From Nibrella viscosa (GTDB lineage: Bacteria > Bacteroidota > Bacteroidia > Cytophagales > Spirosomataceae), in contig NZ_BAABHB010000017.1 of NCBI RefSeq assembly GCF_039541875.1, positions 106,538 to 130,537 on the forward strand: a stretch of DNA of 24,000 nt. Direction: 5' to 3'. Under the pieces are notes generated by a model. It was not told the DNA's origin, searched no databases, and saw only the letters and a list, made by a program, of their open reading frames with translations. Numbering within the stretch: the first letter of the stretch is position 1; every line of letters starts with the position of its first letter. Shown piece by piece: positions 1 to 24,000 of this stretch. A program made the position numbers and the translations under genes.

Positions 1-1
1 T

Positions 2-1696
2 GACAGTACACTTAAGGTTTGGGACGTGAAGACAGGAAAGGTTAAACGGCTGATCAACGGACAAACCAGCTATGTACAACTCATTCATTTAAGTCCAGAT
101 GGTCGACTTTTAGTTACCTTATCTGATAAGGAAATTAACTTAGTAGATATGAAAACAGGACAATTATTACGAAAGTGGTCAGCTCATAAGCAAATGATAT
201 ATGATGTTAATATTAGTCCTGATGGCAGGCACTTAATATCCGCTGGTGGTGATAGTACAATAAAAATCTGGGATATAACAATAGGAAAGTTACTGCACAC
301 CCTTACCGGTCATAATAAAAGTGTTTACAGGGTTTGTTTTAGTCCTGACGGTAAACAGATAGTATCTTTGGATGGAAACGATACGGTCAAGCTATGGGAT
401 GTGCAGACAGGTAAGTTATTGCATACAGCGACAACATCTGCACTTAAATTTCATTATACTGCAGAAGGTCAATGGTTAATAATATACGGTTTCAATAAGA
501 TTGAAATTCGTAATGCCAAGACGCTAGCCCTGGTTCAAACCTATGAAAATAACGGCTACTTCACGGATCTGAATTTTACACCGCCCATTACTCCTGATGG
601 GAAGTATGAAATTTATCCATATTACCTCTCTTTCTTTGTAAAAGAAGCTAAGCCTTCTTTACAAAATAAACTAATAAGCGCGGTCTCCCGACCAACGATC
701 ACCTGGGAGACACCCAATACTGAGCGAATTACCGTCAGCCAGAGTACTTTTACCGTAAAAGCCTGCGTACAGGGCACAGGCGTAAGTCAATACAACCTTG
801 TACATAATAGGCAATCACTCAGCAATCGTTCTATCAAGATTGCGTCCTGCCCTTTAGCCGTTGAGCAGACCGTAACCCTACAAGCGGGTTTGAACGAATT
901 CTATATAACAGCGACCAACGAAGGCGGTACCAGCACCTCGGAGCGTCGTTATATTACCTATCAGCCCGCTCAGTCTACAACGCCTTCTATGGCATCGGCA
1001 ACTACTACTCAGAAACGGCTGGCTCTGGTGATTGGCAACGCACGCTATACACATGCCGGTACGCTGGCCAACCCTGTCAACGACGCAGAAGCCATACGGC
1101 AGGTTCTAAAAGAAAGTGGCTTTGAGGTGCTATTCTATACCAACCTGGACAAAAAAGGCATGGTAGCCGCCATTCAGGAGTTTGGCCAGAAATTAAAAGA
1201 CTACAACGTGGGGTTGTGTTACTATGCCGGACATGGCACATTTCTCAATGGTACTAACTATTTCCTACCGGTAGATGCCAATCCAAGAAGTGCAGATGAG
1301 GTAGAGTTTGAAGGACTGCCCACAACGCGGCTTATCCGCAAGATGGAAGAAACCAACAGGCAGACCAACATTCTGCTGTTTGATGCTTGCCGCAACAACC
1401 CCTTTGAACGCAGTTGGGGCCGGACACTGGGCGAGACGGGCGGCTTCGCCTTACTACCGCCCCCGAAAGGAACGCTCATTGCCTATGCTGCATCCGAAGG
1501 CGAACAAGCCGCCGACGCGGGCCGTAACCAGACAAACAGCCCATTTGCAGCAGCCTTTGTGAAATACGTCCGACAGGGAGGATTGTCGCTGTCCCAGATA
1601 CTGCTGCGGGTGCGCCGGGAGGTGGAGGAAGTCACCAAGGAGCGCCAAACTACGCAGGAGGTCAATATGTTGAGAGATGATTTTTATTTTAAATAA
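2..1696 (+). CDS. WD40-repeat / conserved TYEN-TPDG module / Ig-like segment / caspase-like (peptidase C14) protein, 5'-truncated by the window edge
   Basis: The frame is open from nt 2 (DSTLKVWDVKTGK, WD40 consensus), so the ORF-track GTG at 26 is only the first in-window start. WD40 units carry SPDG...K(I/L)WD. The conserved module NAKTLALVQTYENNGYFTD..TPDGKYEIYPYY lies at nt ~500-650, followed by a ~90-aa two-Cys beta-sandwich-like segment. The C-terminal C14 domain reads LALVIGNARY..NPVNDA..YYAGHG..LLFDACRNNPF. Confidence 0.85.
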   Translation, partial: DSTLKVWDVKTGKVKRLINGQTSYVQLIHLSPDGRLLVTLSDKEINLVDMKTGQLLRKWSAHKQMIYDVNISPDGRHLISAGGDSTIKIWDITIGKLLHTLTGHNKSVYRVCFSPDGKQIVSLDGNDTVKLWDVQTGKLLHTATTSALKFHYTAEGQWLIIYGFNKIEIRNAKTLALVQTYENNGYFTDLNFTPPITPDGKYEIYPYYLSFFVKEAKPSLQNKLISAVSRPTITWETPNTERITVSQSTFTVKACVQGTGVSQYNLVHNRQSLSNRSIKIASCPLAVEQTVTLQAGLNEFYITATNEGGTSTSERRYITYQPAQSTTPSMASATTTQKRLALVIGNARYTHAGTLANPVNDAEAIRQVLKESGFEVLFYTNLDKKGMVAAIQEFGQKLKDYNVGLCYYAGHGTFLNGTNYFLPVDANPRSADEVEFEGLPTTRLIRKMEETNRQTNILLFDACRNNPFERSWGRTLGETGGFALLPPPKGTLIAYAASEGEQAADAGRNQTNSPFAAAFVKYVRQGGLSLSQILLRVRREVEEVTKERQTTQEVNMLRDDFYFK

Positions 1697-1726
1697 TAAT
1701 TTAATAATTGATTAACTATCCTGTTT

Positions 1727-4700
1727 ATGTATCCACTATTTACTAAATCTGCAGCACTAAATGGGTTTATTCTGATCTTTTTATGGTGCTCGATCCCAAT
1801 AGTTTGTGCTCAGCAAATAGACCTTTCTCAAACCCATATGGCGGGGCATTTGCAGGCTATCAATTCAGTAGCGTATAGCCCAGATGGCAGGTATCTGGCT
1901 TCAGGCAGTGATGATCAGACTATTAAGCTGTGGGATACTCAAACGAACCGACTTATACGCACACTGACAGGGCATTCTGATGCAATCAAGTCTGTTCGCT
2001 TTAGTCCAGACGGCAAAATACTTGCCTCCGGTAGCCTTGATAAATCGATTAAACTTTGGAATGCTATTACCGGGCAACTTTTACAGACACTCTCCGAAGA
2101 AGGGAGTATTTTTTCAATTGATTACAGTCCTAATGGGAGACAACTGGTTACAGGAACTCGAGAGGGTGCTGTGAAAATTTGGGACTTACAAACCGGGAAA
2201 GTACTGAAAACTTTAAAAGGACAAAGTGGTCATACTTCCGTTGTTAAGTCCGTAAATTTTAGCCCGGATGGTAGATTAATTGCAACAGCCAGCGCCGATA
2301 AAACCATCAAACTTTGGGACACACAAACAGGAGAGTTATTGAATACCTTAACTGAACATAAAGAAACAATAAATGAAGTTAGTTTTAGTCCAGATGGGAA
2401 ACAACTTATTTCAGGCAGCGATGATAAAACTATTAAATTATGGGATACTCGATCAGGTAAACTATTGCGTAGTGTAGGTGGAGGATATCATGATAATTAT
2501 GTATCATCGGTTAGTTTTAGCCCGGATGGTAAGCTGTTTTTGTCGGCAAGTTCATCGTTTGGCTCAGGTACTAAACTGATGTTGATGAATGCTCAATCTG
2601 GCGAGCTAGTCCGAAGTATTGCATTGAGTTTTGGTTCTGTCTATTCAGTCATCTTTAGTCCAGATGGCAAACAGTTTGTTTCGGCAGGTACAGATAGGAA
2701 CATTAAAATTTGGGATACTCAACAAGGTACCGTGGAGTTTACGCTCAATCATTCTAATTCTTTATTATCAGTTCGTTTTAGTCCCGATAGTAAGCAGTTT
2801 GTCTCCGCTGGGTATGATAAAACGATTAAAGTTTGGGATACAAATAACAAGAAGTCAATAGTTGAATTTAAACATAATGATGTAGTACGATCGGTTATGT
2901 TTAGTTCCGATGGCCTGAAATTATTATCTGCAAGTGATGATAAAAGCATAGTAATCTGGGATGTAAAAACCGGAAAAAAAGAAAATACGCTATTAGCACA
3001 CTCTGACATAGTATATTATGCTTGCTTTAGCCCTGATGACAAGTTGGTAGCGTCAGGGAGTGCTGATAAGACTGTAAAAATATGGAATGCCAAACGAGGC
3101 AAGCTACTGCAAACACTAAGCGGGCATGAGGGTGTAATATTTTCAACAAGTTTCAGTCCGGATGGACAACTATTAATTGCAGGCAGTTCAGACGAAACAA
3201 TTAAAGTTTGGAATGTTCAGAATGGCCAACTTTTGAGAACACTAACAGGACACAAGGGGTCTGTATCTTTTGTTGGTTTTAGTCCGGATGGTCAGCTTAT
3301 AGCATCGTCTGGCGTTGATAATACTATAAAACTTTGGGAAACGCAAACCGGACAGTTATTGCGCACGTTAACAGGCCATGTCAGTACGGTTTTTGAAACA
3401 AGCTTCAGCCCTGATGGAAATCAAATGGTTTCGGCAAGTAATGATAAAACAATTAAAATTTGGGACGTAAAAACGGGAACCTTATTACGAACCTTAACTG
3501 GCCATGAAGGTGGGGTATATACAGTCAGCTTTAGTCCTGATGGTAAGCAACTGGTCTCTGGAGGTTACGGGAGTGAGATTAAGATTTGGGATACCAGAGC
3601 CGGTGTACTACCAAATACCCTAATTGGGTTTTACGATGAGGTCAGCTCAGTTATTAACTCTGGCAGTGCATGGCTCTTTGCAGGAACTCTAGGTGGAACG
3701 GTGAGGTCGTGGAGTGCTTGGACAGCCGCATTATATTTCTCCTACGTTGAACACTCCAGAAAAGTTAATTCTGTAAGTGTAAGCCAAGATGGTAAGTTAC
3801 TTGCTTCTGGGAGTGCCGATAAAACTATTAAACTTTGGTATACGGCTACAAGCAAATTATTTGAGACTTTAAATGGACATCAAGAAGCAGTATTGTCTTG
3901 TGATTTTAGTCCAGACGGCAAACAGGTAGCCTCTGGGAGTGCCGACAAATCAATAAAGCTTTGGGACACCCAAACTGGCGTGTTGCTGCGCACGTTAACA
4001 GGACATGAAGGAAACGTTACTGCCGTGTGCTTCACTCCCGATGACAAACAACTACTATCGGCCAGTGATGATAAGACTATTAAGGTCTGGGATCTGCTGA
4101 CCGGAAAACTAGTTCAAACGGTTCAGAATGTACCCTTCTCTATAATCGGTTTTAAATTTTTGCCGAATAGCGAAAGAATATTCTCAATCACTACAGCCAA
4201 CACACTTGAAGTTCGTGATGCTAAAACCTTTGCTATTTTAAAAACTTATGAGAATTTAGGTTTTTATACCGATCCGGATTTTAAGGCTCCCCTTACTCCT
4301 GATGGGAAGTATGAAATTTATCCTTATTACCGCTCCTTTTTTGTCAGGGAAGCGAATCCGTCAGCACCTGTCACCCGCGTCAATCCCACGGTGGCCGCAC
4401 CCACTGTCAGTTGGGAATTGCCTGCTGCCGAGCGTCTGACTGTTAGCCTGAACAATTACACGGTCAAGGCGTGTGTGCAGGGAACCGACATCAGTCAGTA
4501 TCAGCTCTACTTGAACGGGGTACCCCTCAATGGGCGTACCATCAAAACAGTGGGTTGCTCCATGCCCATCGATCAGAGTATCACCCTGCAATCGGGCGAG
4601 AATGATTTATATATTGCGGGGACCTATGGAGGCAACTCGTTTACGTCAGAGCATCGCTACATTAACTACCAACCGCCTGGAGCAACGCCTGGAACCACAA

Positions 4701-5431
4701 CAGCCACTTCATCTACAGCTAATACGTCTCGAACTCAATCAAATTTAGATGAATTCAGCAATCGTCAGGCTCTCGTTATTGGCAACTCTACCTATCAGTA
4801 TGGTAACTCACTGGATAATCGGCCTATCAACGATGCCCGTGATGTAGCAGCCAGGCTGGAGAAGCTTGGGTTTCGGGTTACCACCATCACCGATGCTACC
4901 AAAACCCAAATTGAGCGGGCCATTGGTCAGTTTAGCCGGGTGGCTCAGAATGCCGATGTCACCTTGTTTTTCTACGCCGGTCACGGGTTGGAATCCGAAG
5001 GTGTCAACTACCTCATTCCCACCGATGCCCAGTTGGAAGAACCCGAAGAAGCCCGGCTCCAGACCATTCCGCTCGACCTGATATTGAGTGAGATGAAGCG
5101 CTACAAAACCAAAGTCAATCTGGTGTATCTGGATGCCTGTCGCAACAAACTCTTTCGCAGTTGGAATAGAGACGGCATCGGACGCGGCTTCAAAACCGTC
5201 GGTCAGTTGTCGCAGAGTACCAAGGTCTATTATGCCACCCAGCCCGGAGACGTAGCTCAGAACGGTACGGGTCGCAACGGGGTATTTACTACCTCGCTGC
5301 TGAAGTACCTGCAACGGGGTGTGGAGATCGAAGATCTTATGCGCGATGTTACCAAAGATGTGATTACCAATACGCGCAACAGTCAGCAACCCTGGTCGGC
5401 GGGCACCTTACTGACGCGTTTTACTTTTTAA
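1727..5431 (+). CDS. Signal peptide + ~18 WD40 repeats + conserved module + Ig-like segment + caspase-like (peptidase C14) domain protein
   Basis: 1234-aa ORF with a hydrophobic N-terminus (..SIPIVCA QQ). About 18 units match GH..SV.FSPDG..L.SGS.D.TIKLWD. The module LEVRDAKTFAILKTYENLGFYTD..TPDGKYEIYPYY lies at nt ~4204-4350. The C14 motifs are ALVIGNSTY..INDA..FFYAGHG..VYLDACRN. By eye, the C-terminal ~230 aa are roughly 75-80% identical to the C-terminus of 11446-13935. Confidence 0.9.
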   Translation: MYPLFTKSAALNGFILIFLWCSIPIVCAQQIDLSQTHMAGHLQAINSVAYSPDGRYLASGSDDQTIKLWDTQTNRLIRTLTGHSDAIKSVRFSPDGKILASGSLDKSIKLWNAITGQLLQTLSEEGSIFSIDYSPNGRQLVTGTREGAVKIWDLQTGKVLKTLKGQSGHTSVVKSVNFSPDGRLIATASADKTIKLWDTQTGELLNTLTEHKETINEVSFSPDGKQLISGSDDKTIKLWDTRSGKLLRSVGGGYHDNYVSSVSFSPDGKLFLSASSSFGSGTKLMLMNAQSGELVRSIALSFGSVYSVIFSPDGKQFVSAGTDRNIKIWDTQQGTVEFTLNHSNSLLSVRFSPDSKQFVSAGYDKTIKVWDTNNKKSIVEFKHNDVVRSVMFSSDGLKLLSASDDKSIVIWDVKTGKKENTLLAHSDIVYYACFSPDDKLVASGSADKTVKIWNAKRGKLLQTLSGHEGVIFSTSFSPDGQLLIAGSSDETIKVWNVQNGQLLRTLTGHKGSVSFVGFSPDGQLIASSGVDNTIKLWETQTGQLLRTLTGHVSTVFETSFSPDGNQMVSASNDKTIKIWDVKTGTLLRTLTGHEGGVYTVSFSPDGKQLVSGGYGSEIKIWDTRAGVLPNTLIGFYDEVSSVINSGSAWLFAGTLGGTVRSWSAWTAALYFSYVEHSRKVNSVSVSQDGKLLASGSADKTIKLWYTATSKLFETLNGHQEAVLSCDFSPDGKQVASGSADKSIKLWDTQTGVLLRTLTGHEGNVTAVCFTPDDKQLLSASDDKTIKVWDLLTGKLVQTVQNVPFSIIGFKFLPNSERIFSITTANTLEVRDAKTFAILKTYENLGFYTDPDFKAPLTPDGKYEIYPYYRSFFVREANPSAPVTRVNPTVAAPTVSWELPAAERLTVSLNNYTVKACVQGTDISQYQLYLNGVPLNGRTIKTVGCSMPIDQSITLQSGENDLYIAGTYGGNSFTSEHRYINYQPPGATPGTTTATSSTANTSRTQSNLDEFSNRQALVIGNSTYQYGNSLDNRPINDARDVAARLEKLGFRVTTITDATKTQIERAIGQFSRVAQNADVTLFFYAGHGLESEGVNYLIPTDAQLEEPEEARLQTIPLDLILSEMKRYKTKVNLVYLDACRNKLFRSWNRDGIGRGFKTVGQLSQSTKVYYATQPGDVAQNGTGRNGVFTTSLLKYLQRGVEIEDLMRDVTKDVITNTRNSQQPWSAGTLLTRFTF

Positions 5432-5446
5432 CAGCTCCAACAAACT

Positions 5447-7012
5447 ATGGCCCAGGCAACCCTAACACTAGTTCTCTTGCTGTGGACGACGATCAGCGCA
5501 CTGGCTCAGTCCAAAAGTATTAAGATTGTAGGCGGATCGGCCCCCCGCGGTACCGAACGGCGGCTGGCCCTGGTGGTGGGCAACAAAGACTACGCTAAAC
5601 CCGGTGCCGGTCTGAGAAACCCCGTCAACGATGCCACCGATATGGCACAGGCCCTGGAGGAGCTGGGCTTCACGGTGCTACGTCGGCAGAACCTCAATCG
5701 GAGCGGCCTGGAAGCCGCCATCGACGAGTTTACCGAGCAACTTACCCGCTACGAAGTGGGGCTGTTTTATTTCTCAGGCCATGGATTGGCCTTCTCCGGG
5801 GAGAACTACCTTGTGCCCACCGATGCCAGCTTGTCGTTTGAGACTCAGGCCCGCTCGCAATGTGTATCGCTCCGGCGGGTGCTGGATGGCATGGAGGGAG
5901 CCAATGCCAAAGTAAGTCTGGTGTTTTTAGACGCCTGCCGCAACAACCCTTTTCCTAAAAGCACCAAAGGGGGGGTAAGTCAGGGCTTGGTGATTCCAAA
6001 CAATCCACGGGGCAGCCTGGTGGCTTTTGCCACCCGCGACGGGCGCACCGCCGACGACAACCCAGGTGAGCGCAACGGCTTGTTCACGGGTGAGTTGCTC
6101 AAGCACCTGCGAACGCCAAACTTAGGGTTGCGGGCCATGCTAGACCGGACCATTGCGGGTGTAGAGAGCCGCAGCGGAGGTCATCAGATTCCGGGCCGCT
6201 ACGATGAGTTAAGGGGTGATTTTATGTTTGTACAGACAGCCGGCTGGCCCAAAGTAACGGAAGACAGACGGGACCCGGTAGCTGATAACATACTGCCTTC
6301 GGTTTATTCTCTCAAAACGTACATGCCAACTATCGGTAACCAGGGTAATTATGGTACCGCTGTTGCCTGGGCAGCTTGTTATGTACGAACCATTATGGAA
6401 GCCCGGCGGCAAGGATTAGCCGGGCAACAATCGGCCATTGACGCCCTGCGGTTTTCGCCTACTTATATCTTTGAACAAGTGAAACAAGTGGGCGATAAAG
6501 AATGTCAGCTTGGTAGTCTGATTGAACCCGCGTTACTGGTGATGCAGCGAAAAGGCGCGGTATTGCTGGCAAGCTTGCCTTACCCATCTTGCGGAGCGGA
6601 TATAGTGGCTTATCATGCCCAGGCTTCCCGGTATAAAATTGGTGGCTTTGAGGCACTTTCTCCGTCCAGTAATCAAACACGCCTTTCGGCCGACGGCCTG
6701 AAGCAAGCATTAGTGGTTTCTAAAAACGCGGTTGTAATCGGTTTTCAAATTCCACGATCATTTATGAGCGCTGGAGAATACTGGCAACCGGAGCCTACTG
6801 AATCGCCGAAGAGTTCGGTCGGCAGTTCAGCGTTAACCCTCATTGGTTACGATGATCAGAAAAACGGCGGCTCTTTCTTATTAGCTAATTCCTGGGGTAA
6901 AAATTGGGGCAAAGAGGGTTACATCTGGATTCGCTATGATGTGCTCACGCAGTACGCATCTTTAGCCTATCAGATCGGTGACCCGGTTACTCCCGTCAGC
7001 GAAAAAAAGTAA
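5447..7012 (+). CDS. Signal peptide + caspase-like (C14) domain + papain-like (C1) domain with substituted catalytic residues
   Basis: 521 aa. The N-terminus is ..ISALA QSKS, followed by the conserved SIKIVGG..ERRLALVVGNKDY. The C14 dyad motifs are FYFSGHG and VFLDACRNNPF. The C-terminal ~240 aa align by eye to family C1 (NQGxxGxxxAWA, LIGYDD, LLANSWGKNWGKEGYIWIRYD). That alignment places Ala at the nucleophile-Cys position (gct 6359-6361) and Ser at the His position (tca 6827-6829). Confidence 0.85.
   Translation: MAQATLTLVLLLWTTISALAQSKSIKIVGGSAPRGTERRLALVVGNKDYAKPGAGLRNPVNDATDMAQALEELGFTVLRRQNLNRSGLEAAIDEFTEQLTRYEVGLFYFSGHGLAFSGENYLVPTDASLSFETQARSQCVSLRRVLDGMEGANAKVSLVFLDACRNNPFPKSTKGGVSQGLVIPNNPRGSLVAFATRDGRTADDNPGERNGLFTGELLKHLRTPNLGLRAMLDRTIAGVESRSGGHQIPGRYDELRGDFMFVQTAGWPKVTEDRRDPVADNILPSVYSLKTYMPTIGNQGNYGTAVAWAACYVRTIMEARRQGLAGQQSAIDALRFSPTYIFEQVKQVGDKECQLGSLIEPALLVMQRKGAVLLASLPYPSCGADIVAYHAQASRYKIGGFEALSPSSNQTRLSADGLKQALVVSKNAVVIGFQIPRSFMSAGEYWQPEPTESPKSSVGSSALTLIGYDDQKNGGSFLLANSWGKNWGKEGYIWIRYDVLTQYASLAYQIGDPVTPVSEKK
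6169..6236 (+). repeat. 68-nt near-identical dispersed repeat (copy A) at the caspase-domain / C-terminal-domain junction
   Basis: ccgcagcggaggtcatcagattccgggccgctacgatgag(t/c)taaggggtgatttt(a/g)tgtttgt(a/g)caga has 65/68 nt identical to 17003-17070. Flanking sequence on both sides is unrelated at the DNA level. Confidence 0.85.
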
Positions 7013-7078: not shown

Positions 7079-7426
7079 ATGAAATCGTTTTTCTGCCTTT
7101 TTATTATTTTGCTGTTCGTAGCTACTCGTATATCAATACCTTCATCTTCCGGCGTAGGAAGCCAGGGTTATTACTATGCCATTGTGTATAAATCTAACCC
7201 GGCTCAGGCCCAGTTTGCTACTACGTTCCTTCCCACTTGCAATGAAGGAGTACTTTACCAGCGTATTGCCCTTTATGCTCGTAAAAACGGCTTCGTGGGT
7301 TACCGATTAGAAGGGCCGTTTACGCAGGATGAAGTAGAACAAGTGCGCCTGAATGCCAAACAGCAATGGCTCGCCAGGGGTTACGCTCTGACAGATGACC
7401 ATAATTTTATTGGAAATTGCTATTAA
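7079..7426 (+). CDS. Small secreted protein of unknown function (two conserved Cys), paralog of 17834-18184
   Basis: 115 aa with a hydrophobic N-terminus. The pattern shared with the paralog is GYYYAIV..(N)KPAQ.QF.T.F...C.E..LYQRIA.YA..NG...YRL.GPF.Q.EVE..R..AKQQW...GYA...D.N..G.CY-stop. I recognise no family. The stop at 7424-7426 is 8 nt before the Ro60 ATG. Confidence 0.7.
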   Translation: MKSFFCLFIILLFVATRISIPSSSGVGSQGYYYAIVYKSNPAQAQFATTFLPTCNEGVLYQRIALYARKNGFVGYRLEGPFTQDEVEQVRLNAKQQWLARGYALTDDHNFIGNCY

Positions 7427-9221: not shown

Positions 9222-9361
9222 GAAAAATAGCCGGTGCCGTAGAAACGGGTTACTCCGGGTGTAAGTGGCGCAGGTTCGAATCCTGCCGCTCTTTTAGAGT
9301 GTAGCATAGCGGTCAGTGCGCTTATAATGTACCTGCTTCGTCTGTCGCCCGGCTATTTTTC
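9222..9361 (+). ncRNA. yrlA: Y RNA-like ncRNA (YrlA type) with a circularly permuted tRNA-like domain
   Basis: A 13-bp perfect terminal helix joins 9222-9234 to 9349-9361. The T-arm is GCAGG-UUCGAAU-CCUGC (9270-9286). The acceptor-like hairpin is CGCUC..GAGUG (9287-9301), followed by UA. The D-arm is GCAU-AGCGGUCA-GUGC (9304-9319). An anticodon-stem-like helix pairs 9261-9265 with 9321-9325, and 9248-9253 pairs with 9329-9333. The element lies 258 nt downstream of rsr on the same strand. Confidence 0.65.
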
Positions 9362-9368
9362 TTTGCAT

Positions 9369-15279: not shown

Positions 15280-16938
15280 ATGTACCGACTTTATTTATGG
15301 CTGTTGCTGAGCCTGCTGGTAACGCATCCGTTAGTAGCCCAGAAAAGTATTAAGATTGCTGGGGGCAGAGCCCCGGCCGGCATTGAACGGCGACTGGCGC
15401 TGGTAGTAGGCAACAAAAATTATAATCGAACCGACGCCCGACTCACCAACCCCATCAATGATGCCAACGACATGGCCAATGCTCTGGAGTTACTGGGTTT
15501 TGAGGTGATTCTTAAAACCGACCTCAACCGCGTTGACTTTGAGCAGGCAGTAGATCAGTTTGGCGAACGGCTCAAACACTACGATGTGGGCCTGTTCTAC
15601 TACTCCGGTCACGGTCTACAGGCGCAGGGCGAGAATTACCTGGTGCCGGTTGATGCAGTAATTCGCAGTGAACCCCAGATACGCTACCACTGCATGGACC
15701 TAGGGCGGGTATTGGCGGCTATGGAGGGCTCTAATGCCTCCACCAATATCGTGCTGCTGGATGCCTGTCGTAACAACCCCTACAAGAAAAGCTGGAGCAA
15801 AGGCGGCTTGGCCGAAGGACTCACCATTCCGCGCAACCCGCCGGGCACCATAGTGGTGTTTGCCACCAGCGAAAACAGCGTGGCCGACGACAATACCGGC
15901 GAACGCAACGGGCTGTTTACGGCCAAGTTGCTGAAGAACATCCGGCAGCCCAACCGCTCGCTGAGTCAGATACTGGCCGAGACCCGACGTGGGGTCTACA
16001 CCCGTAGCAACAAACAGCAGGTACCGGCCGACTACAACAAATTGATGGGCGACTTTGTGTTTGTAATTCAGGATAAGGGCAAAAACGATACCAGAACCGC
16101 CGACCAGCCATTTGGCCCGGCCATGGTGTATGTGCGGGGCGGCAGCTTCCCGATGGGCAGCGAGGAAGGAGAAACCGACGAGAAGCCCGTTCACCAGGTA
16201 ACGGTGAGCGCATTTCTGATGGGTAAGTATGAGGTCACGGTAGCTGAGTTTGAGCAGTTCATTGAGGCTACCCGCTACCAGACCGATGCTGAAAAGGAAG
16301 GGCATAGCTATACATGGAACGGCAAAGATTGGAAGAAAATGGTGGGAGTCAATTGGCGGTGTGATGCCGAAGGAAACGTGCGACCTCGCAGCGATCAGAA
16401 TCACCCGGTTCTCCACGTAAGCTGGAACGATGCGGTGGCGTATTGCGAGTGGCTGAGCCGGCGAACTGGCAAACGCTACCGACTGCCGACGGAAGCCGAG
16501 TGGGAGTATGCGGCCGGCAACGGCAGCGCTCATACCAAATTTAGCTGGGGAGACATGGAGCCATCAGGGTTAATACAGTCAAATATAGCCGACCGGAGCG
16601 CAAAAGGTCTGTTAAGTTGGGCCAATGAAAACATTAATGATGGCTACAGGTACACAGCCCCGGTGGGAAGCTACGCACCGAACCGGTTTGGCTTGTACGA
16701 TATGACGGGCAATGTACATGAGTGGTGTCAGGACTTGTATAGTGACACTTATTATTCCAATTATTCCAGCGCCAGCGGCAATAATCCAACTGGTCCCGTT
16801 AGTGGCTCGTGCCGAGTCCTAAGGGGCGGTTGCTGGAACTCGATACCGCAGCACTGTCGGTCTACGGACCGAGGCTGCGAAAACCCAGCGATTCGTCACG
16901 ACCGCGTTGGTTTTCGTGTCGTATCACCAATTCAGTAA
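15280..16938 (+). CDS. Signal peptide + caspase-like (C14) domain + FGE-sulfatase/SUMF1-like domain protein
   Basis: 552 aa with N-terminus ..THPLVA QKSIKIAGG..ERRLALVVGNKNY. The C14 motifs are FYYSGHG and VLLDACRNNPY. The C-terminal SUMF1-type motifs are MVYVRGGSFPMGS, HQVTVSAFLMGKYEVT, HPVLHVSWNDAVAYCEWL, YRLPTEAEWEYAA, FGLYDMTGNVHEWCQD, RVLRGGCW and VGFRVV. Confidence 0.9.
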   Translation: MYRLYLWLLLSLLVTHPLVAQKSIKIAGGRAPAGIERRLALVVGNKNYNRTDARLTNPINDANDMANALELLGFEVILKTDLNRVDFEQAVDQFGERLKHYDVGLFYYSGHGLQAQGENYLVPVDAVIRSEPQIRYHCMDLGRVLAAMEGSNASTNIVLLDACRNNPYKKSWSKGGLAEGLTIPRNPPGTIVVFATSENSVADDNTGERNGLFTAKLLKNIRQPNRSLSQILAETRRGVYTRSNKQQVPADYNKLMGDFVFVIQDKGKNDTRTADQPFGPAMVYVRGGSFPMGSEEGETDEKPVHQVTVSAFLMGKYEVTVAEFEQFIEATRYQTDAEKEGHSYTWNGKDWKKMVGVNWRCDAEGNVRPRSDQNHPVLHVSWNDAVAYCEWLSRRTGKRYRLPTEAEWEYAAGNGSAHTKFSWGDMEPSGLIQSNIADRSAKGLLSWANENINDGYRYTAPVGSYAPNRFGLYDMTGNVHEWCQDLYSDTYYSNYSSASGNNPTGPVSGSCRVLRGGCWNSIPQHCRSTDRGCENPAIRHDRVGFRVVSPIQ

Positions 16939-16961: not shown

Positions 16962-17752
16962 ATGGGCAATGTGCCACTAGTTCATTCGCGACGGCCGTTC
17001 AACCGCAGCGGAGGTCATCAGATTCCGGGCCGCTACGATGAGCTAAGGGGTGATTTTGTGTTTGTGCAGAAAGGTTTTTCTACACCTATTCTTGAGAAGT
17101 CAAAAACTGAACCTGTCAGTTCTAAATCTGTTCCGAACCGAACAGCCAAATTTTTAGACCTTCCTTTTGCAGAGATGGCCTATGTTGAAGGAGGCACTTT
17201 CCAGATGGGTGACCCAAATGGAATACAAGGTTATAATAAGGCACATGCGGTGACTGTGAGTAGCTTTTTGATGGGCAAATATGAAATAACAAGGCGGTAA
17301 TGGAAGAGTGTGATGGGCAGTCTACCTCCAAGTTTTAGTTCAACTCCAAAAGACTGTCAAGATTGTCCCGTTGAGCCGGTGACATGGGAAGAGATACAAA
17401 CGTTTTTGAAAACTGAACAAGCTAAGATATTTTGAACACAAAGCCGTATTACATGCCAGGTGTTGCAAGAGGCAAAATGTTACAAGTTGGTAGTTTTGAG
17501 CCTAATCGCTTAGGACTATATGACATGAGTGGTAACGCATCAGAATGGTGCAGTGACTGGGAAACTGGGTATTCTAATGAGGCTCAAGTAGATCCAACAG
17601 GACCTCCTACAGGGGATTTCAAAGTGGTACGAGGGGGGAGCTGTTGCGGGCGGTTGGACCAATGCCTGGTATTTGACCGGAATTTTGGTGATGCTACTCC
17701 CAGGTATCGACATCTATACATGGGCTTTAGAATTGTAGCCCCATCCAAATAA
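16962..17752 (+). pseudogene. Decayed caspase-FGE-sulfatase paralog (caspase domain deleted, in-frame stop, internal deletion/frameshift)
   Basis: Only the last ~20 caspase-domain codons are retained (SGGHQIPGRYDELRGDFVFVQ). The homologous frame is interrupted by TAA at 17298-17300 (..YEITRR*WKSVMG.. versus YEVTQRQWEAVMG in 18477-20168). About 45 codons, including the RLPTEAEWEYAA motif, are missing near 17410-17430, and the frame shifts there (frame of 16962 versus frame of 17432). The C-terminal motif is degraded (RGGSCCG instead of RGGSW). Confidence 0.75.
17003..17070 (+). repeat. 68-nt near-identical dispersed repeat (copy B), 5' end of the pseudogene
   Basis: See 6169-6236. This copy encodes the same SGGHQIPGRYDELRGDF(M/V)FVQ peptide. 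Confidence 0.85.
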
Positions 17753-17822: not shown

Positions 17823-17833
17823 AAAACACATTC

Positions 17834-18184
17834 ATGAAAACGCTTTTCTGCCTTTTTGCTTTTGCTCTCCTGATGGCCGCCAATCAGGCTCTCCCCGCTA
17901 AATCGGCTGCATCCGGCGGCCGGGGATATTACTATGCCATCGTTTTTAACAATAAACCGGCCCAGGTCCAGTTTTCCACTGCCTTTTTTGCCGATTGTCA
18001 GGAGAACACGCTCTATCAGCGGATTGCCAACTACGCCCAGAACAACGGTTACGGGCAGTACCGGCTGGTAGGACCCTTTGCGCAAACCGAAGTGGAAGCG
18101 GCCCGTCAGTACGCCAAACAGCAGTGGTATAACAGCGGCTACGCCGTGGCGGGCGATAACAACTACGTCGGTGATTGTTACTGA
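17834..18184 (+). CDS. Small secreted protein of unknown function (two conserved Cys), paralog of 7079-7426
   Basis: 116 aa with a hydrophobic N-terminus. The same GYYYAIV...LYQRIA.YA..NG..YRL.GPF...AKQQW...GDCY-stop pattern and the same leader motif as the paralog are present. Confidence 0.7.
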   Translation: MKTLFCLFAFALLMAANQALPAKSAASGGRGYYYAIVFNNKPAQVQFSTAFFADCQENTLYQRIANYAQNNGYGQYRLVGPFAQTEVEAARQYAKQQWYNSGYAVAGDNNYVGDCY

Positions 18185-18251
18185 GACTGCTACGCAGAGT
18201 GGTGAAAGTACACCTATCAGTAATGTCTAAGTAGTTTTACCGTTCAGAAAA

Positions 18252-18274: not shown

Positions 18275-18476
18275 ACTATTGCATTAGAAAGTAACTCTGC
18301 GTAAACTTGGTTTCCTAAAGCGGTTAGACTAAAATCCACATAAGTATAAAATCGCTAAATAATTAAAAACTATTATAGCAAAGATTCTGAGTAAAACCGC
18401 CTTTTTGCCTGCATTGGCGGGTGCTAAGTCGACAATATGCTGCACCAGGGCTGTCAGCACCCGGTAACTTTTAAAC

Positions 18477-20168
18477 ATGATAAACTACTCTTTTTGCAAG
18501 GCAATGCGTTTTCTGTTGCTGGCTTATGGGCTATGGCTAAGCCAACTCGGTCTGGCCCAGTCCCGTAGTATCAAAATTGTGGGTGGGCAGGTCCCATCGG
18601 GCACCGAACGCCGGCTGGCACTGGTGATCGGCAATAAAGATTACCGGCATGTGAGAGCCCTAAAGAACCCCCTCAACGATGCTCAGGATATGAGCAATGC
18701 ACTGGAACAAATCGGCTTTGAGGTTATTACCCTGACCAATACTACTTTTGGCCAGATGATTGCGGGCCTGAACCGCTTCAAGGATAAATTAACCACGTCG
18801 GATGTGGCCCTGTTGTACTACTCCGGTCATGGGGTGAGCTACAATGGCCGTAACTACTTAATGCCCATCGATGCGGAGTTGCGCTGTCTGGAACAAATCG
18901 AAGAAAATAGCGTCTCACTTAACCGTGTATTGGCCGATATTGCCGCCCGGCAGGTTCGTAATAGCTTTGTGTTCCTAGATGCCTGCCGTAATTTGCCCGA
19001 TCTGAGCATCTGCAATGGCACGCAAAAAGATGTCACGTTGCAGACGGGCCTGGTGCGACCAACTAATAACCCTCGTGGCAGTATGATTGTGTTTGCTACT
19101 GAAGAGGGTAACACCGCCGATGATAATGTAAATGGTCGTAATGGTCTGTTTACCGAAGCACTGCTGAAGTATTTAACTAAGCCTAATCTAAGTATTCGTG
19201 CCATCCTGGACCAAACGGATTTGGAAGCAGAAGCCAAAAGTGGTGGTCGTCAATCGCCCGCCCGCTACGATAAGATCCGTGGAGAGTTTATGTTTGTTAT
19301 ACAAACTCCGGCTGATCCTTTGCCAGTGACCCCTGCCCCAAGTAACGCAGAGAGCGTGACGCGTTCAGAACCTGCCAGAAGGCAAAACCAAACGAAACCT
19401 ATTGCCTCCGGAAAACCTACGCTTACCCCTACTCGTCTTACCAATTATTTAGACTTGCCGTTTGCCGATCTGGTCTATGTTCCGGGCGGTTCCTTTCAGA
19501 TGGGGGATACCCGCAATGAAGGGTCTGGAAATGAAACTCCTGATCATCGTGTCATCGTCAGCTCATTTATGATGGGTAAATACGAAGTGACCCAGCGCCA
19601 GTGGGAGGCTGTTATGGGTAACAATCCAGCTTACTTTAAAGACTGCCCCGACTGCCCGGTGGAGAGTGTCTCATGGGAAGAAGTGCAGGAGTTTTTAAGA
19701 AAACTCAACATTCGGACGAATATGCGCTATCGGCTGCCAACGGAGGCTGAGTGGGAATATGCCGCCGGCGGAGGAGATGTAGCTAATCGGAGCCGTTTTG
19801 GTAATGGACAAGATACACTGGACCCATCGCAGGTAAACTTTGATGGCAATGGACAATACATAACACCCTACTCAGTAAGTGGAAAATATAGGAATAAAAC
19901 GGTCGAAGTAGGGAGTCTTGAGCCAAATCAGTTGGGCTTATACAATATGAGTGGCAGTGTATGGGAGTGGTGTCAGGACTGGTACGGGGATTACAGTAGT
20001 GCTGAACAAACCAATCCGACCGGTCCTGCTACAGGCTCTTATCGCGTGTTGCGGGGTGGTAGCTGGTTCACTGAACCTCAGCGCTGCCGGTCATCGTACC
20101 GTGGCCGTAACACCCCTGAGTCGCGGTTTAATTATGTAGGTTTAAGAATTGTATTATCGATACCATGA
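18477..20168 (+). CDS. Signal peptide + caspase-like (C14) domain + FGE-sulfatase/SUMF1-like domain protein
   Basis: 563 aa. An alternative start at ATG 18504 would give MRFLLLAYGLWLSQLGLA QSRSIKIVGG. The C14 motifs are LALVIGNKDY, LYYSGHG and VFLDACRN. A Pro/Thr-rich linker follows. The SUMF1-type motifs are LVYVPGGSFQMGD, YRLPTEAEWEYAAGGG, LGLYNMSGSVWEWCQDWY, RVLRGGSW and VGLRIV. Confidence 0.9.
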   Translation: MINYSFCKAMRFLLLAYGLWLSQLGLAQSRSIKIVGGQVPSGTERRLALVIGNKDYRHVRALKNPLNDAQDMSNALEQIGFEVITLTNTTFGQMIAGLNRFKDKLTTSDVALLYYSGHGVSYNGRNYLMPIDAELRCLEQIEENSVSLNRVLADIAARQVRNSFVFLDACRNLPDLSICNGTQKDVTLQTGLVRPTNNPRGSMIVFATEEGNTADDNVNGRNGLFTEALLKYLTKPNLSIRAILDQTDLEAEAKSGGRQSPARYDKIRGEFMFVIQTPADPLPVTPAPSNAESVTRSEPARRQNQTKPIASGKPTLTPTRLTNYLDLPFADLVYVPGGSFQMGDTRNEGSGNETPDHRVIVSSFMMGKYEVTQRQWEAVMGNNPAYFKDCPDCPVESVSWEEVQEFLRKLNIRTNMRYRLPTEAEWEYAAGGGDVANRSRFGNGQDTLDPSQVNFDGNGQYITPYSVSGKYRNKTVEVGSLEPNQLGLYNMSGSVWEWCQDWYGDYSSAEQTNPTGPATGSYRVLRGGSWFTEPQRCRSSYRGRNTPESRFNYVGLRIVLSIP

Positions 20169-20356
20169 CAAGACGAACTCCTGTTCTGCGCCTTGTTTTT
20201 GAAGGAGGTAGAGATAGTTGGGTTATAGTCAGGTTTGCGAGTTCAAAAACGTTCAAAAAGCACTCTGACCTCTCAGTTAATTACGGGATATGCCGCTCCT
20301 AATCGACTGGCTATTTCAAAAGATCTGATTGTATAGTATACTACCCCATTCGACCT

Positions 20357-23032
20357 ATGCAAACAATTATTTACCGTTTTTATTTCTGGCTGATCTTTTG
20401 GGTGGAGCTCTTTGGAACTTTGACTCTCCAGGCTCAAAGCCCCGCATTATCTGAATCGCCTTTGGCGGGGCATATAAATCAGGTTCATTCGGTAGCCTTC
20501 ACCCCTAATGGCACTCGCTTCGTCTCAGGTAGCGAGGATGGCACCCTCAAGCTTTGGGATGCTCAGACCGCTACGTTGATCAAAACAATTACCGGCCATA
20601 GTGATGCAGTAACTTCAGTAGCCTTTAGCCCGGATGGTAGCATATTGCTATCGGGCAGCAAAGACAAAACGCTCCGATTGTGGGATGCCCAAACCGGTAA
20701 GTTACTGAAGACCCTAACCGGACATAGTAAGGCTGTGAACTCCGTGGCCTACAACTCCGATGGCACTCGTCTGCTCTCGGGAAGTGACGATGCAACAATC
20801 AAATTATGGGATAGCCAGACGGGTAACATGCTTAAATCTATAGTCGGTCATGAGAATAGCGTTGAAGCCGTTGCTTTTAGCCCCGATGGCACCCGATTAC
20901 TATCGGGGGGTAGAGATAAGACGTTGAAGTTATGGAGAACTTCGACGGGCAAGCTTCTCAACACGTTGTATGGTCATGATTATCACGTAACATCAGTTGC
21001 ATTTAGCCCTGATGGGAACTACCTGTTGTCAGGAAGTAGCGGCATGACTGGAACTGCTATTCTTTGGGACGCTCGGACTGGCAAGCAAATTTCAGAAAAT
21101 AAATTATATGGTAAGGCTCCGGTTACCTTTAGTCCAGATGGTACCCGTTTGATGGTAGTTGGTTGGGAAGATGTAAAATTATTGGATCTCAAAACCGGTA
21201 AATGGCAGCTACTAAAAGGACATAGTGATTTGGTCCTTTGTTTAGCTTTTAGCCCCGATGGTACTCGTGTGCTTTCAGGCAGTTATGATAACACTATTAA
21301 ACTATGGAATGCCCAAACGGGTAGACTGCTTCAGAGTACATCCAGTGGTCATAACAGACAAGCTGATGCCGTAGCTTTTAGCCCAGATGGAACTCGAATG
21401 CTGTCAGGTAGTAGGGACAAAACTATCAAAATCTGGAGTGCTGAAAATGGTAATCTACTCCATAGCCTGACAGGTAAGTTTGATTGGGTTCGATCAGCAA
21501 CCTTTAGCCCCAGCGGTAAGAGCATGTTAGTGGCTATTGATGGAGATAATGATGTTTTTACGCTCTATGACGCGCAAACCGGTAAGTCGCTCTGGACACA
21601 GACAGCATGGGCAAACTGGGGTAAAACATTGGCCTTCAGCCCAAACGAGACCTTTTTTGTATCAGCTAATGGCTCTTCTATTAAGGTATATAATACCCAG
21701 ACAGGCAGTTTGCTCAAAACGATGACCTCGGACGCCAATGTTGAGGTTAATACACTTGCTTTTGACGCAGACGGCAACCGCCTGGTATCAGGTAGTTCGT
21801 CAAGGAGTAAATCAGGTAGTAATGTTCTAAATATTTGGGACACCCAGGCGGGAAAGTTACTTCAGACCCTTCCGGGTCATACATCGGCAGTCACATCTGT
21901 TGCTTTAACTCCCGACGGCAATCGTTTACTATCGGCAGGCGAAGACAGTACGCTCAAACTGTGGGATCTAAAAACAGACGATGAACTAACTTCCATGACG
22001 ACAGTCGCTCCGGCAGTCGGCTTCCATTTTTTGGATGAAGGTCGTCAGGTGCTAGTCATAACCAAAGCCAACATTCTTGAAGTGCGCGAGACAGCCACCC
22101 TTAAGCTCTTAAAGACCTACGAGAACACTGGTTTCTTTACTGACCCCAACTACCAGCCCCCGCTTACGCCTGATGGGCAGTACGAGATTTACGTCTATTA
22201 CCAGTCGGCTTTTCTCAAACCTGCCCGTTCGTTCGTAGCTTCCAGTCAACCTACAACTGTGTCTCAGCAAGTAGTGACTAAACCTACGGGTGCTTCAACA
22301 TCTACTACGTCGGTAAAGCCGTCTTCACCCCCTGTCTCTACCCTGACCAAACGCTACGCCCTGGTGATCGGGAACTCCGGCTATAAAGCCGGCCGTGAAC
22401 TGGCCGGGCGGCCCCTCAACGATGCCCGCGACATCACCGCCCGGCTACAGGCACTGGGCTTCACCGTTACTAAACATGAGGACCTAACTGATAAGCAGGC
22501 ATTCGAGAGAGCTTTCCAGCAGTTTGGCCGACAAGCTCGTGGAGCCGATGTGGCTCTGTTCTTCTACGCCGGGCACGGTATCGAAGTAGCGGGAGAGAAC
22601 TATATCATCCCGATCGGGGCTACCCTGGAACAGAAAGAAGATGTGCGGTACGAAGCCTTCCCCGTCAACACCGTACTGGAGGAATATCGCGAATTAGGCG
22701 CTAAAAACAGCGTGGTACTGCTGGATGCCTGCCGCGAAAACCCGTTCCGAAGCTGGGGGCGCGATGGGGGTGGTCGGGGCTTCAAGACTATCGATCTGGC
22801 AAAGGTGCAATTGGATAATCTGTTCATCGGCTACGCCACGGCCCCTGGCAGCGTGGCCCAAAACGGCTCCGGCCGCAACGGTACCTTCACCACGGCCCTG
22901 CTTAAATACCTCCGCCAGGGTGAGCGGTTTGACGACATCTTTCAGGACACAACCAACGAGGTGCTGACCATGACGAACAACACGCAGCGGCCATTTCAAA
23001 CGTCCAGTTTGCGGACGCGTTTGATTTTCTAA
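20357..23032 (+). CDS. Signal peptide + ~12 WD40 repeats + conserved module + caspase-like (C14) domain protein
   Basis: 891 aa with N-terminus ..GTLTLQA QSPALSESPLAGH. It has about 12 WD40 units, several of them degenerate. The module LEVRETATLKLLKTYENTGFFTD..TPDGQYEIYVYY lies at nt ~22075-22218 and is followed by a Ser/Thr/Pro-rich linker. The C14 motifs are YALVIGNSGY..LNDA..FFYAGHG..VLLDACRENPF. Confidence 0.9.
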   Translation: MQTIIYRFYFWLIFWVELFGTLTLQAQSPALSESPLAGHINQVHSVAFTPNGTRFVSGSEDGTLKLWDAQTATLIKTITGHSDAVTSVAFSPDGSILLSGSKDKTLRLWDAQTGKLLKTLTGHSKAVNSVAYNSDGTRLLSGSDDATIKLWDSQTGNMLKSIVGHENSVEAVAFSPDGTRLLSGGRDKTLKLWRTSTGKLLNTLYGHDYHVTSVAFSPDGNYLLSGSSGMTGTAILWDARTGKQISENKLYGKAPVTFSPDGTRLMVVGWEDVKLLDLKTGKWQLLKGHSDLVLCLAFSPDGTRVLSGSYDNTIKLWNAQTGRLLQSTSSGHNRQADAVAFSPDGTRMLSGSRDKTIKIWSAENGNLLHSLTGKFDWVRSATFSPSGKSMLVAIDGDNDVFTLYDAQTGKSLWTQTAWANWGKTLAFSPNETFFVSANGSSIKVYNTQTGSLLKTMTSDANVEVNTLAFDADGNRLVSGSSSRSKSGSNVLNIWDTQAGKLLQTLPGHTSAVTSVALTPDGNRLLSAGEDSTLKLWDLKTDDELTSMTTVAPAVGFHFLDEGRQVLVITKANILEVRETATLKLLKTYENTGFFTDPNYQPPLTPDGQYEIYVYYQSAFLKPARSFVASSQPTTVSQQVVTKPTGASTSTTSVKPSSPPVSTLTKRYALVIGNSGYKAGRELAGRPLNDARDITARLQALGFTVTKHEDLTDKQAFERAFQQFGRQARGADVALFFYAGHGIEVAGENYIIPIGATLEQKEDVRYEAFPVNTVLEEYRELGAKNSVVLLDACRENPFRSWGRDGGGRGFKTIDLAKVQLDNLFIGYATAPGSVAQNGSGRNGTFTTALLKYLRQGERFDDIFQDTTNEVLTMTNNTQRPFQTSSLRTRLIF

Positions 23033-23257
23033 CGCCCAGCAAAGTTTAAACCGAACCAAGAACAGATAGCCCAACACATCTAATTCAGAGCAATATATGA
23101 ACGACCAGGTGCCGGTACAGTGGTCCAAGTTGAATATAATCGTTAAAACAAGCCTATGTCAATCACATACATACCTGTGGCTGGAAGCCGGGAAGAGCTA
23201 AGGACTCAGGGTCTTTTGGTTTCCGGTAGTTCGTCAGGCAGTAGCCTCTGGGGGTTC

Positions 23258-24000
23258 ATGCTGATGCTGTTGCTGAGCCTGCTGGTAACAACTGCCGGAA
23301 TGGCCCAGAGAACTATAAAAATCGCAGGTGGCAAAGCTCCCGTCGGCACTGAACGCCGGGCCGCCATCATCATCGCCAATCAGGATTACCAGCAGGATAT
23401 GATGGACCTGAAAAAAGTCTACAACGATGCCGATGATATGAAAGAGGCCCTCGATAAACTGGGCTTCGAGATCCTGGTCTTCCGAAAAGACCTCAGCCGT
23501 CTGGCCCTGGACCGGATGTTATTAAATCTGGCAACTCAGTTGAAAGGCTATCAGGTTGCTTTTTTTTACTACTCGGGTCACGGTGCCGAATTCCAGGGCA
23601 AAAATTATCTGCTGCCCACCGATATGCCTCCCCTTGAATTTCGCAGTGACTTAGCGACTTACGGCATCAGTCTCGACCGGGTGTACGAGGCCCTAGGCCA
23701 GGCCGGTGTTCGAACCAGCATCGTTGTCTCGGATGCCTGTCGCAGCCTCCCCCTGGGCAAAGGCTTACCGACGGGTATGGTCATACCGGCTAACAACCCG
23801 GCCGGTACGTTCACCATGTTTGCCACCCGCTCGGGTAATCTCTCGCTGGAAAATGCCGGCGGCCGCAACGGGTACTTTACGCAGGAGTTGTTGAAAAACT
23901 TGGTGCGGCCCAACTGGACACTGGACAACATTTTTTACGAGACTCGTAAGGGGGTTAAAGCGGCTACTAACAACCAGCAGGAACCCAGTGTGGCCAACGA
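23258..24000 (+). CDS. Signal peptide + N-terminal caspase-like (C14) domain protein, 3'-truncated by the window edge
   Basis: This ORF is not in the ORF track because it has no stop inside the window. It translates as MLMLLLSLLVTTAGMA QRTIKIAGGKAPVGTERRAAIIIANQDY..YNDADDM..FFYYSGHG..IVVSDACRS..GGRNGYFTQELL. An in-frame ATG at 23156 is an alternative start. The signal-peptide DNA gctgttgctgagcctgctggtaac is shared with 15300-15323. Confidence 0.8.
   Translation, partial: MLMLLLSLLVTTAGMAQRTIKIAGGKAPVGTERRAAIIIANQDYQQDMMDLKKVYNDADDMKEALDKLGFEILVFRKDLSRLALDRMLLNLATQLKGYQVAFFYYSGHGAEFQGKNYLLPTDMPPLEFRSDLATYGISLDRVYEALGQAGVRTSIVVSDACRSLPLGKGLPTGMVIPANNPAGTFTMFATRSGNLSLENAGGRNGYFTQELLKNLVRPNWTLDNIFYETRKGVKAATNNQQEPSVAN

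Follow-up and report, generated by a model that had tools for sequence, protein, structure and literature searches.

We analyzed a stretch of 24,000 nucleotides (nt) from Nibrella viscosa, a soil bacterium of the Spirosomataceae (contig NZ_BAABHB010000017.1, positions 106,538 to 130,537 of the forward strand; the whole stretch is referred to below as the window), in which genes for caspase-like proteases of the Peptidase_C14 (C14) family are interleaved with genes for Ro60, a Y RNA and the predicted RNA ligase RtcB. Our analysis indicates that this is likely the chance juxtaposition of an exported caspase array, a Ro60/Y RNA module and a stand-alone RtcB of a short subfamily, which together form no combined system. 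An earlier reading of the window, made from its letters alone (the sequence-only reading), had proposed a caspase array joined to an RNA-repair arm and, as an alternative, unrelated modules that the expansion of paralogs had trapped side by side. The first proposal failed the cross-genome co-location test, with C14 genes found as neighbors in 0/81 TROVE loci and 1/84 short-RtcB loci, while the alternative was supported by the neighborhood evidence and by the predicted compartments of the proteins. Had the coupling been true, it would have represented a new type of bacterial system in which protease effectors are tied to RNA repair; what the evidence describes is an unusually dense case of known parts, namely orthocaspase fusions, Ro60/Y RNA and RtcB.

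All substantial open reading frames (ORFs) of the window lie on the + strand. The C14 domains were counted by combining Pfam, a motif scan and a six-frame search with a hidden Markov model (HMM) trained on the C14 domains of the window itself. The genes and elements are as follows, with a slash marking the predicted signal peptide cleavage site and GC3 denoting the G+C content of third codon positions.

2-1696, + strand: o1, WD40 repeats, linker and C-terminal C14 domain, 5' end beyond the window (AGHG at 1226, DACR at 1382; Pfam C14 119 bits, and WD40)
1727-5431, + strand: o2, predicted signal peptide VCA/QQ, about 17 WD40 repeats, linker and C14 domain, 1234 amino acids (aa) (AGHG at 4976, DACR at 5132; GC3 0.40)
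5447-7012, + strand: o3, predicted signal peptide ALA/QS, C14 domain and papain-like Peptidase_C1 (C1) domain (SGHG at 5774, DACR at 5930; Pfam C14 117 bits, C1 41 bits)
7079-7426, + strand: o4, small, probably secreted protein of 115 aa with 2 conserved Cys, paralog of o12
7435-8964, + strand: o5, Ro60 orthologue with TROVE and vWA domains and a DVSGSM metal ion-dependent adhesion site (MIDAS), no signal peptide (Pfam TROVE 99.8 bits)
9222-9361, + strand: YrlA-type Y RNA, assigned by homologues and covariation (Rfam YrlA 33 bits)
9369-11087, + strand: o6, predicted signal peptide, WD40 propellers and linker, caspase domain deleted (WD40 only by Pfam; C14 HMM search)
11446-13935, + strand: o7, predicted signal peptide SLA/QS, WD40 repeats and C14 domain (AGHG at 13480, DACR at 13636)
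14072-15202, + strand: o8, short-type RtcB of 376 aa, no signal peptide (Pfam RtcB 98.8 bits; GC3 0.70)
15280-16938, + strand: o9, predicted signal peptide LVA/QK, C14 domain and FGE-sulfatase-like domain (SGHG at 15604, DACR at 15760; Pfam C14 137 bits, FGE 239 bits)
16962-17752, + strand: o10 and o11, decayed C14-FGE gene (Pfam FGE fragments; self-BLAST)
17834-18184, + strand: o12, small, probably secreted protein, paralog of o4
18477-20168, + strand: o13, predicted signal peptide GLA/QS, C14 domain and FGE-sulfatase-like domain (SGHG at 18822, DACR at 18978; Pfam C14 121 bits, FGE 174 bits)
20357-23032, + strand: o14, predicted signal peptide LQA/QS, WD40 repeats and C14 domain (AGHG at 22568, DACR at 22724; C14 HMM and motif scan)
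23258 to beyond 24000, + strand: o15, predicted signal peptide GMA/QR and C14 domain, 3' end beyond the window (SGHG at 23573, DACR at 23732)

About 170 related loci were compared in total. The TROVE sample consisted of 81 Bacteroidota loci (±10 kb), that of Tellurirhabdus rosea and 80 others (one genome per species scanned), which were drawn from Tellurirhabdus, Spirosoma, Fibrella, Runella, Chitinophaga, Flavobacterium and other taxa. To identify neighbors, the six-frame ORFs of these loci were queried with the C14 HMM from the window and with the window's sequences for WD40, FGE, papain, the small proteins and RtcB. C14, WD40 and FGE genes were found in 0/81, 0/81 and 0/81 of these loci, respectively. 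A divergently transcribed WYL-WCX regulator was detected by neighbor clustering in 54/81, in place of RtcR, and RtcB in 41/81, of a long type of about 480 aa and in most cases encoded 1-3 kb downstream in the same orientation. These data revealed that the Ro module of Bacteroidota usually consists of a WYL-WCX regulator, TROVE, tandem Y RNAs (1-11 copies) and a long RtcB. In T. rosea, whose orthologue is 78% identical to o5, the neighbors of Ro60 are the divergent WYL-WCX regulator and housekeeping genes, and neither a caspase nor an RtcB gene was found within the 10 kb of that locus. The window contains neither the WYL regulator nor the long RtcB; o4 is what lies upstream of TROVE, and the Ro module is reduced to TROVE and one Y RNA. 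The o5 product is 100% identical to the N. viscosa TROVE protein P0001, and the DVSGSM/MIDAS residues did not vary across 15 orthologues. It scored 28 bits with the NCBIfam Rsr equivalog model (cut-off 900) and is thus not an equivalog under that model. The window resembles the bacterial Ro60 (Rsr)/YrlA pairs described by Chen et al. 2014 (PMC4201824) in that its gene for a TROVE and vWA protein comes directly before a tRNA-like Y RNA that combines a long terminal stem with T and D arms. Unlike the rsr-yrlBA-rtcBA operon of Salmonella, it lacks RtcR, RtcA and an adjacent long RtcB. As a separate observation, a single TROVE locus, in a metagenome-assembled genome (MAG) of Bacteroides sp. (L064, 11968-13143), carried a short downstream RtcB of about 390 aa that matched the window RtcB at E 6e-21; this protein may represent an intermediate, Ro60-linked subfamily.

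The remaining member of the Ro module is the RNA element at 9222-9361. A scan of the whole window with Rfam at gathering thresholds returned nothing; when an E-value threshold was used instead, the YrlA family (RF02553) matched 9246-9354 with 33.1 bits (local E 2.9e-5), which is below its gathering score of 69. The element is closed by a perfect terminal stem of 12 bp, AAAAATAGCCGG/CCGGCTATTTTT, after which comes a U-rich tract. It also contains a conserved strand, GUGCCGUAG, as well as T and D arms like those of a tRNA; its predicted fold was better than those of all shuffled sequences (z -3.4). Searching with the window element by nhmmer gave + strand matches immediately 3' of TROVE in almost every locus, often in tandem, and a profile built from these matches detected at least one Y RNA copy in 78/81 TROVE loci, with 1-11 copies per locus. 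An RNAalifold alignment of 26 copies contained 33 pairs, 25/33 of them with compensatory changes, and these pairs covered the terminal stem, T arm, acceptor-like stem and D arm, which are features described for YrlA (PMC4201824). Because of these homologues 3' of TROVE and these compensatory changes, we regard the element as a genuine YrlA-type Y RNA despite its sub-threshold Rfam score. The window has one copy, compared with two or more in 68/78 of the TROVE loci with a Y RNA match. Since the o6 start at 9327 falls within the Y RNA, the ATG at 9369 is likely the true start of o6. The region 9349-9371 consists of the 3' strand of the terminal stem followed by TTTTTCTTT, leaving 7 nt to this probable start. 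The stem and U-rich tract resemble a terminator, and with such spacing o6 would need either terminator-like read-through or a promoter within the Y RNA region.

The sequence-only reading had also joined Ro60, the Y RNA and RtcB into one cassette. This grouping did not hold, since the window RtcB belongs to another subfamily and since TROVE was a neighbor in 0/84 short-RtcB loci. The protein meets the description of an RtcB-type 3'-phosphate/5'-hydroxyl RNA ligase, with a Pfam RtcB match (gathering score 27 bits) and all metal-binding and guanylylation motifs kept. The motifs DIH, DIGCG, GGGNHF, CHTGTR, HNH and CAHGAGR are unvarying across the subfamily, and D67, C70, N111, H112, H128, H238 and H293-GAGR are invariant within it; by comparison of motifs we take these residues to serve in metal binding and guanylylation, and ligase activity is predicted. 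Matches to the long, Ro-linked RtcBs reached only E 1e-7 to 1e-12, and that to one solved RtcB structure was marginal (E 2.3e-4). The NCBIfam models PRK09588 and TIGR03073 (release_rtcB) both remained below cut-off, the latter with 70.5 vs 271.8 bits. Orthologues of 376-378 aa and 65-72% identity were found mainly in Chitinophagaceae and patchily in Spirosomataceae. On these comparisons the window RtcB is assigned to a short divergent subfamily and not to the Ro-linked type. It also lies 5 kb from the Y RNA, behind two WD40 genes. A ribosome-repair RtcB coupled to PrfH, which names in the JGI records had hinted at, was considered and rejected on the TIGR03073 score and the lack of prfH in the window. 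No link of the short RtcB to TROVE, Archease or RtcA was seen in the loci examined, where the search did not include prfH. The sample comprised 84 loci outside the window, namely those of Niastella, Runella sp. MFBS21, P0129 and P0141 and 80 metagenomic loci. C14 neighbors were present in Runella sp. MFBS21 (L082) alone, the Niastella gene had unrelated neighbors, and none of the 80 metagenomic loci had C14, FGE or TROVE, while one had a WD40 gene.

A second line of evidence is the predicted compartment of the proteins. In Bacteroidetes, substrates of signal peptidase I expose an N-terminal Gln after cleavage, known as the Q-rule (PMC5837995, PMC10653852). All complete caspase, WD40 and small proteins of the window begin with an N-terminal hydrophobic segment, followed in most by a small residue and then Gln: A/Q in o2, o3, o7, o9, o13, o14 and o15, and SSG/QS in o6. 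The corresponding pattern in o4 is GVGS/QG, and o12 has the hydrophobic segment with no clear cleavage-site Gln; the N-terminus of o1 lies outside the window. Neither Ro60 nor RtcB of the window has a signal peptide. The same division was seen among homologues, with a hydrophobic N-terminus in 95/117 C14-FGE proteins vs 0/120 TROVE and 0/120 RtcB proteins. The caspase, WD40 and small proteins are thus probably exported via Sec, and the predicted compartments differ, because the caspase proteins carry signal peptides and Ro60 and RtcB do not: the proteases are predicted to reside outside the cytoplasm, and Ro60/Y RNA and RtcB inside. The predicted export of WD40-caspase and caspase-FGE proteins of Bacteroidota also speaks against their interpretation as cytoplasmic effectors of cell death.

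The reading of chance juxtaposition would therefore resolve the window into three parts. The first would be an old and diverged family of cysteine proteases of the orthocaspase type, specific to the lineage, arranged in tandem and exported via Sec to the periplasm or envelope. Each member has its protease domain joined to a presumed binding module (WD40, FGE-sulfatase/C-type-lectin-like or papain-like), and two small, probably secreted proteins accompany the family. The second would be a cytoplasmic Ro60/Y RNA surveillance module stripped of its usual WYL regulator and long RtcB, and the third a stand-alone cytoplasmic RNA ligase of the short RtcB subfamily, which elsewhere occurs alone in unrelated contexts. 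Their interleaving would be the outcome of caspase paralogs having been duplicated, truncated and rearranged in a plastic region rich in such genes. The most likely targets of the proteases would be envelope or foreign proteins outside the cytoplasm, recognized via the fused modules, and Ro60/Y RNA and RtcB would, from what is known of their families, work on RNA in the cytoplasm, as is the case elsewhere. A biochemical coupling of the proteases with the RNA genes would not be expected.

Several points weigh against this reading. The sample of caspase arrays outside the window is small (n=4 loci), and export is a prediction made from sequence only. Co-orientation and short gaps leave room for possible co-transcription: the Ro60 gene starts 8 nt past the o4 stop, so that read-through from o3-o4 is possible, and the RtcB gene begins 136 nt past o7 and ends 77 nt ahead of o9. 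Scans for sigma-70 promoters, terminators and the Bacteroidetes -7 box (TAnnTTTG) gave matches at chance level and defined no transcription units. Finally, both Spirosomataceae identified here with a short RtcB have rtcB in a C14-FGE array; in Runella sp. MFBS21 the gene sits among at least 7 C14 genes, 5 of them C14-FGE.

This last point bears on a narrower link, in which the short RtcB alone, and not Ro60, would be conserved and possibly co-regulated within Spirosomataceae C14-FGE arrays, either by descent from a common ancestor or because it moved jointly with them. C14-FGE genes flank rtcB in both Nibrella and Runella, and a block about 90 nt upstream of rtcB (AAAAAAT..TACTnATAAGGTT) is common to the two and missing from loci of the Chitinophagaceae type. 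In a neighbor-joining (NJ) tree of short RtcBs both proteins fall within the same 25-member clade, in which they are not strict sisters. However, P0129 and P0141, the nearest relatives of the Runella RtcB, have no caspase neighbors, as is also the case at the 80 metagenomic loci, and the occurrence in two genera can be explained without function by shared ancestry of a single arrangement, which is the simplest account of this residual oddity. Moreover, the common upstream block may be rtcB's own promoter. We therefore consider the narrower link unlikely, and hold a functional link of any kind for the short RtcB in these arrays to be unlikely or very unlikely. Its most elaborate form would make the short RtcB a selected resident of exported C14-FGE arrays in Nibrella and Runella, with envelope proteases and a cytoplasmic ligase in one stress or conflict regulon, for example in response to ribotoxins or to phage via the envelope, and with Ro60/Y RNA also recruited in Nibrella; to this we assign a very small probability.

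The content of the array bears on how the genes came to be interleaved. The window contains exactly 8 C14 domains, every one with [AS]GHG and DACR motifs that are in register when aligned. They are distributed over 4 WD40-C14 proteins (o1, o2, o7, o14), 3 C14-FGE proteins (o9, o13, o15) and 1 C14-Peptidase_C1 protein (o3); the complete product of o15 is P0243, a C14-FGE protein of 542 aa. Above-threshold Pfam matches to C14 (gathering score 21.4; that of TROVE is 23) accounted for 5/8 domains among the matches listed, at 117-137 bits, with o15 outside the Pfam scan. Beyond the 8 intact domains there are a WD40-only paralog (o6) and a decayed C14-FGE gene (o10/o11), and in the latter the C-terminal ~25 aa of a caspase domain are followed by the FGE N-terminus and, after an interruption, by the FGE C-terminus. 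The sequence-only reading was accurate in this inventory: its eight C14 domains with intact His/Cys dyad in three types of fusion were all recovered by the motif scan and the window-derived HMM, and the caspase-less WD40 paralog, the decayed copy, Ro60, the Y-RNA-like element and RtcB were all present where it had placed them. It had also pointed out that STAND NTPase, RtcA and RtcR are absent, and none was found among the window ORFs or the Pfam matches listed.

Pairwise identity of the C14 domains ranged from 27-76%, the highest value being that of o7 vs o2 (76%), and the domains formed two groups, one WD40-linked (o2, o7 and o14, with o1 more distant) and one FGE/papain-linked (o3, o9, o13 and o15). 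These values indicate that the family is old and not the product of a recent burst of duplication. Self-BLAST revealed a tract of 68 nt, 95.6% identical between nt 17003-17070 (o10) and nt 6169-6236 (o3, end of the caspase domain), a value far higher than the protein identity of 27-76% between the other paralogs, which points to recent gene conversion or to a duplicated unit of caspase and small-protein genes. Such a unit, in which the gene for a small secreted protein comes after that for a caspase fusion, is seen twice (o3-o4 and o10/o11-o12). GC3 of adjacent genes ranged from 0.38-0.70, with o2, o4 (0.41) and o10/o11 (0.38-0.40) near the lower end, o9, o12 and o15 at 0.63-0.64, and o8 at the top; such sharp differences suggest that the parts differ in age or origin. 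Together, the loss in o6, the decay of o10/o11, the 68-nt tract, the repeated unit and the spread of GC3 point to ongoing rearrangement of the array.

The C14-FGE family itself is very large, with at least 7362 matches at an E-value of 1e-20 or below. At least 3 further copies are located on the Nibrella contig, as seen from locus tags _52690, _52020 and _51950, and several paralogs per contig occur in Nibrella, Runella and a Spirosomataceae MAG. Three other C14-FGE loci (in a Spirosomataceae MAG, Larkinella humicola and Runella salmonicolor; L164-L166) also carry papain-like C1 or WD40-C14 genes, and neither RtcB nor TROVE was found at these 3 loci. As an observation in its own right, their neighbors include Fic/DUF4172, HTH_17, a HEPN_Swt1-containing protein of 1007 aa, a type I restriction enzyme and a UvrD/SLFN-like helicase, a setting that resembles a variable or defense island.

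These features raise the alternative of a variable or mobile island with unrelated cargo, in which Ro60/Y RNA and rtcB were inserted horizontally into an older caspase array. It would accommodate the GC3 differences between adjacent genes, with rtcB the highest, the mainly Chitinophagaceae and patchy Spirosomataceae distribution of the RtcB subfamily, the separation of Ro60 from its usual WYL and long-RtcB neighbors, and the HTH_17, Fic and restriction-modification genes at related C14-FGE loci. However, no integrase, transposase, tRNA or terminal repeat was found within the window, and the identity of Ro60 to the orthologue of its closest sequenced relative fits vertical descent. This alternative, which differs from chance juxtaposition by local rearrangement only in the direction of rearrangement, is in our estimation quite improbable. 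The weakest alternative, a single stress or conflict system with caspases as effectors and Ro60/Y RNA/RtcB as an RNA-repair recovery arm, is suggested by genes interleaved on one strand with short gaps, by the RtcB within a caspase array in Runella and by the defense-island-like company of other C14-FGE loci (Fic, HEPN, type I restriction-modification and helicase genes), but is highly improbable given the neighbor counts, an RtcB that is not of the Ro-linked subfamily and never neighbors Ro60 elsewhere, signal peptides on the caspase proteins and none on Ro60 or RtcB, the lack of a sensor NTPase, and PADLOC results for the window that were limited to generic caspase and repeat matches, with none for Ro60 or RtcB.

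Comparison with described systems is consistent with an array of known parts. WD40-metacaspase and metacaspase-FGE-sulfatase proteins are known architectures, these domains being among the most commonly fused, and N-terminal helices in such proteins have been read as signal peptides (PMC3501461). The window proteins resemble these prokaryotic metacaspase fusions (Asplund-Samuelsson et al. 2012, PMC3501461) in combining a C14 p20 His/Cys dyad with WD40 or FGE and an N-terminal helix, and the same survey recorded many paralogs in some Bacteroidetes, with 28 in Haliscomenobacter. They differ from the survey in their density, with 8 intact, 1 decayed and 1 caspase-less copy on one strand of 24 kb, whereas at most 3 per predicted operon were reported there (PMC3501461). 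Also unlike the 2012 metacaspases are the WD40 repeats N-terminal to the caspase without NACHT, the C14-papain fusion and the rare small secreted partner. Caspase-fold and WD40 domains in diversified paralogs are likewise shared with the STAND NTPase-WD40-caspase and EACC1-caspase systems (Kaur et al. 2020, PMC7159879). Unlike those systems, the window has no NTPase, its matches to the EACC1 model are below cut-off, and its signal peptides predict an extracytoplasmic location. NTPase families (NACHT, NB-ARC or other STAND) were absent from the Pfam matches listed for the window proteins; a Walker-A pattern search of the WD40 proteins matched only within the WD40 repeats, which begin at about residue 40; and the EACC1-associated caspase model NF047832 gave 60-72 bits (cut-off 140).

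The FGE domains matched Pfam FGE-sulfatase with 174-239 bits, and every NCBIfam equivalog model (FGE, GldK, PvdO and EgtB) remained below cut-off. Orthocaspases with a C-terminal C-type lectin (CLec) domain, which holds the variable region, are found among the variable proteins of diversity-generating retroelements (DGRs) and their paralogs (PMC7517822). By analogy, the FGE-sulfatase-like domain of the window proteins would be a binding module of the CLec type. A DGR as the explanation of these domains was rejected, since there is no reverse transcriptase among the window ORFs of at least 100 aa and no template repeat; self-BLAST of the window likewise detected no template repeat/variable repeat-like (TR/VR-like) repeat at the FGE C-termini.

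Useful outcomes of the analysis are the definition of the Bacteroidota Ro module and two leads, the rare small secreted protein and a leader of short rtcB genes. The small proteins o4 and o12 are 53% identical, share two conserved Cys and a C-terminal G[ND]CY, and are each encoded downstream of a caspase-fusion gene. Their family is very rare, with 12 clusters among 1.84 billion (1.84e9) representatives. No Pfam, NCBIfam or PADLOC match was obtained for o4, whose AlphaFold2 (AF2) model has an alpha/beta fold (predicted local distance difference test score, pLDDT, 73) with no significant fold match in the Protein Data Bank (PDB). Although it lies directly upstream of TROVE, o4 is a member of the caspase array and not of the Ro module. 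Both proteins could be inhibitors, partners or substrates of the adjoining cysteine proteases.

The second lead was observed at other short-rtcB loci (L083-L113; for example L084, 9880-10000), where a highly conserved leader of about 110 nt, absent from the window, lies directly upstream of the gene. The leader begins at a -7 box (TAnnTTTG) and contains two hairpins, CCGA/UCGG and ACAUC/GAUGU, together with a pseudoknot helix, GGGGC/GCCCC. It has no Rfam match, and compensatory changes are present in 3/5 pairs of the pseudoknot; the leader may represent an undescribed cis-regulatory RNA of the short RtcB subfamily.

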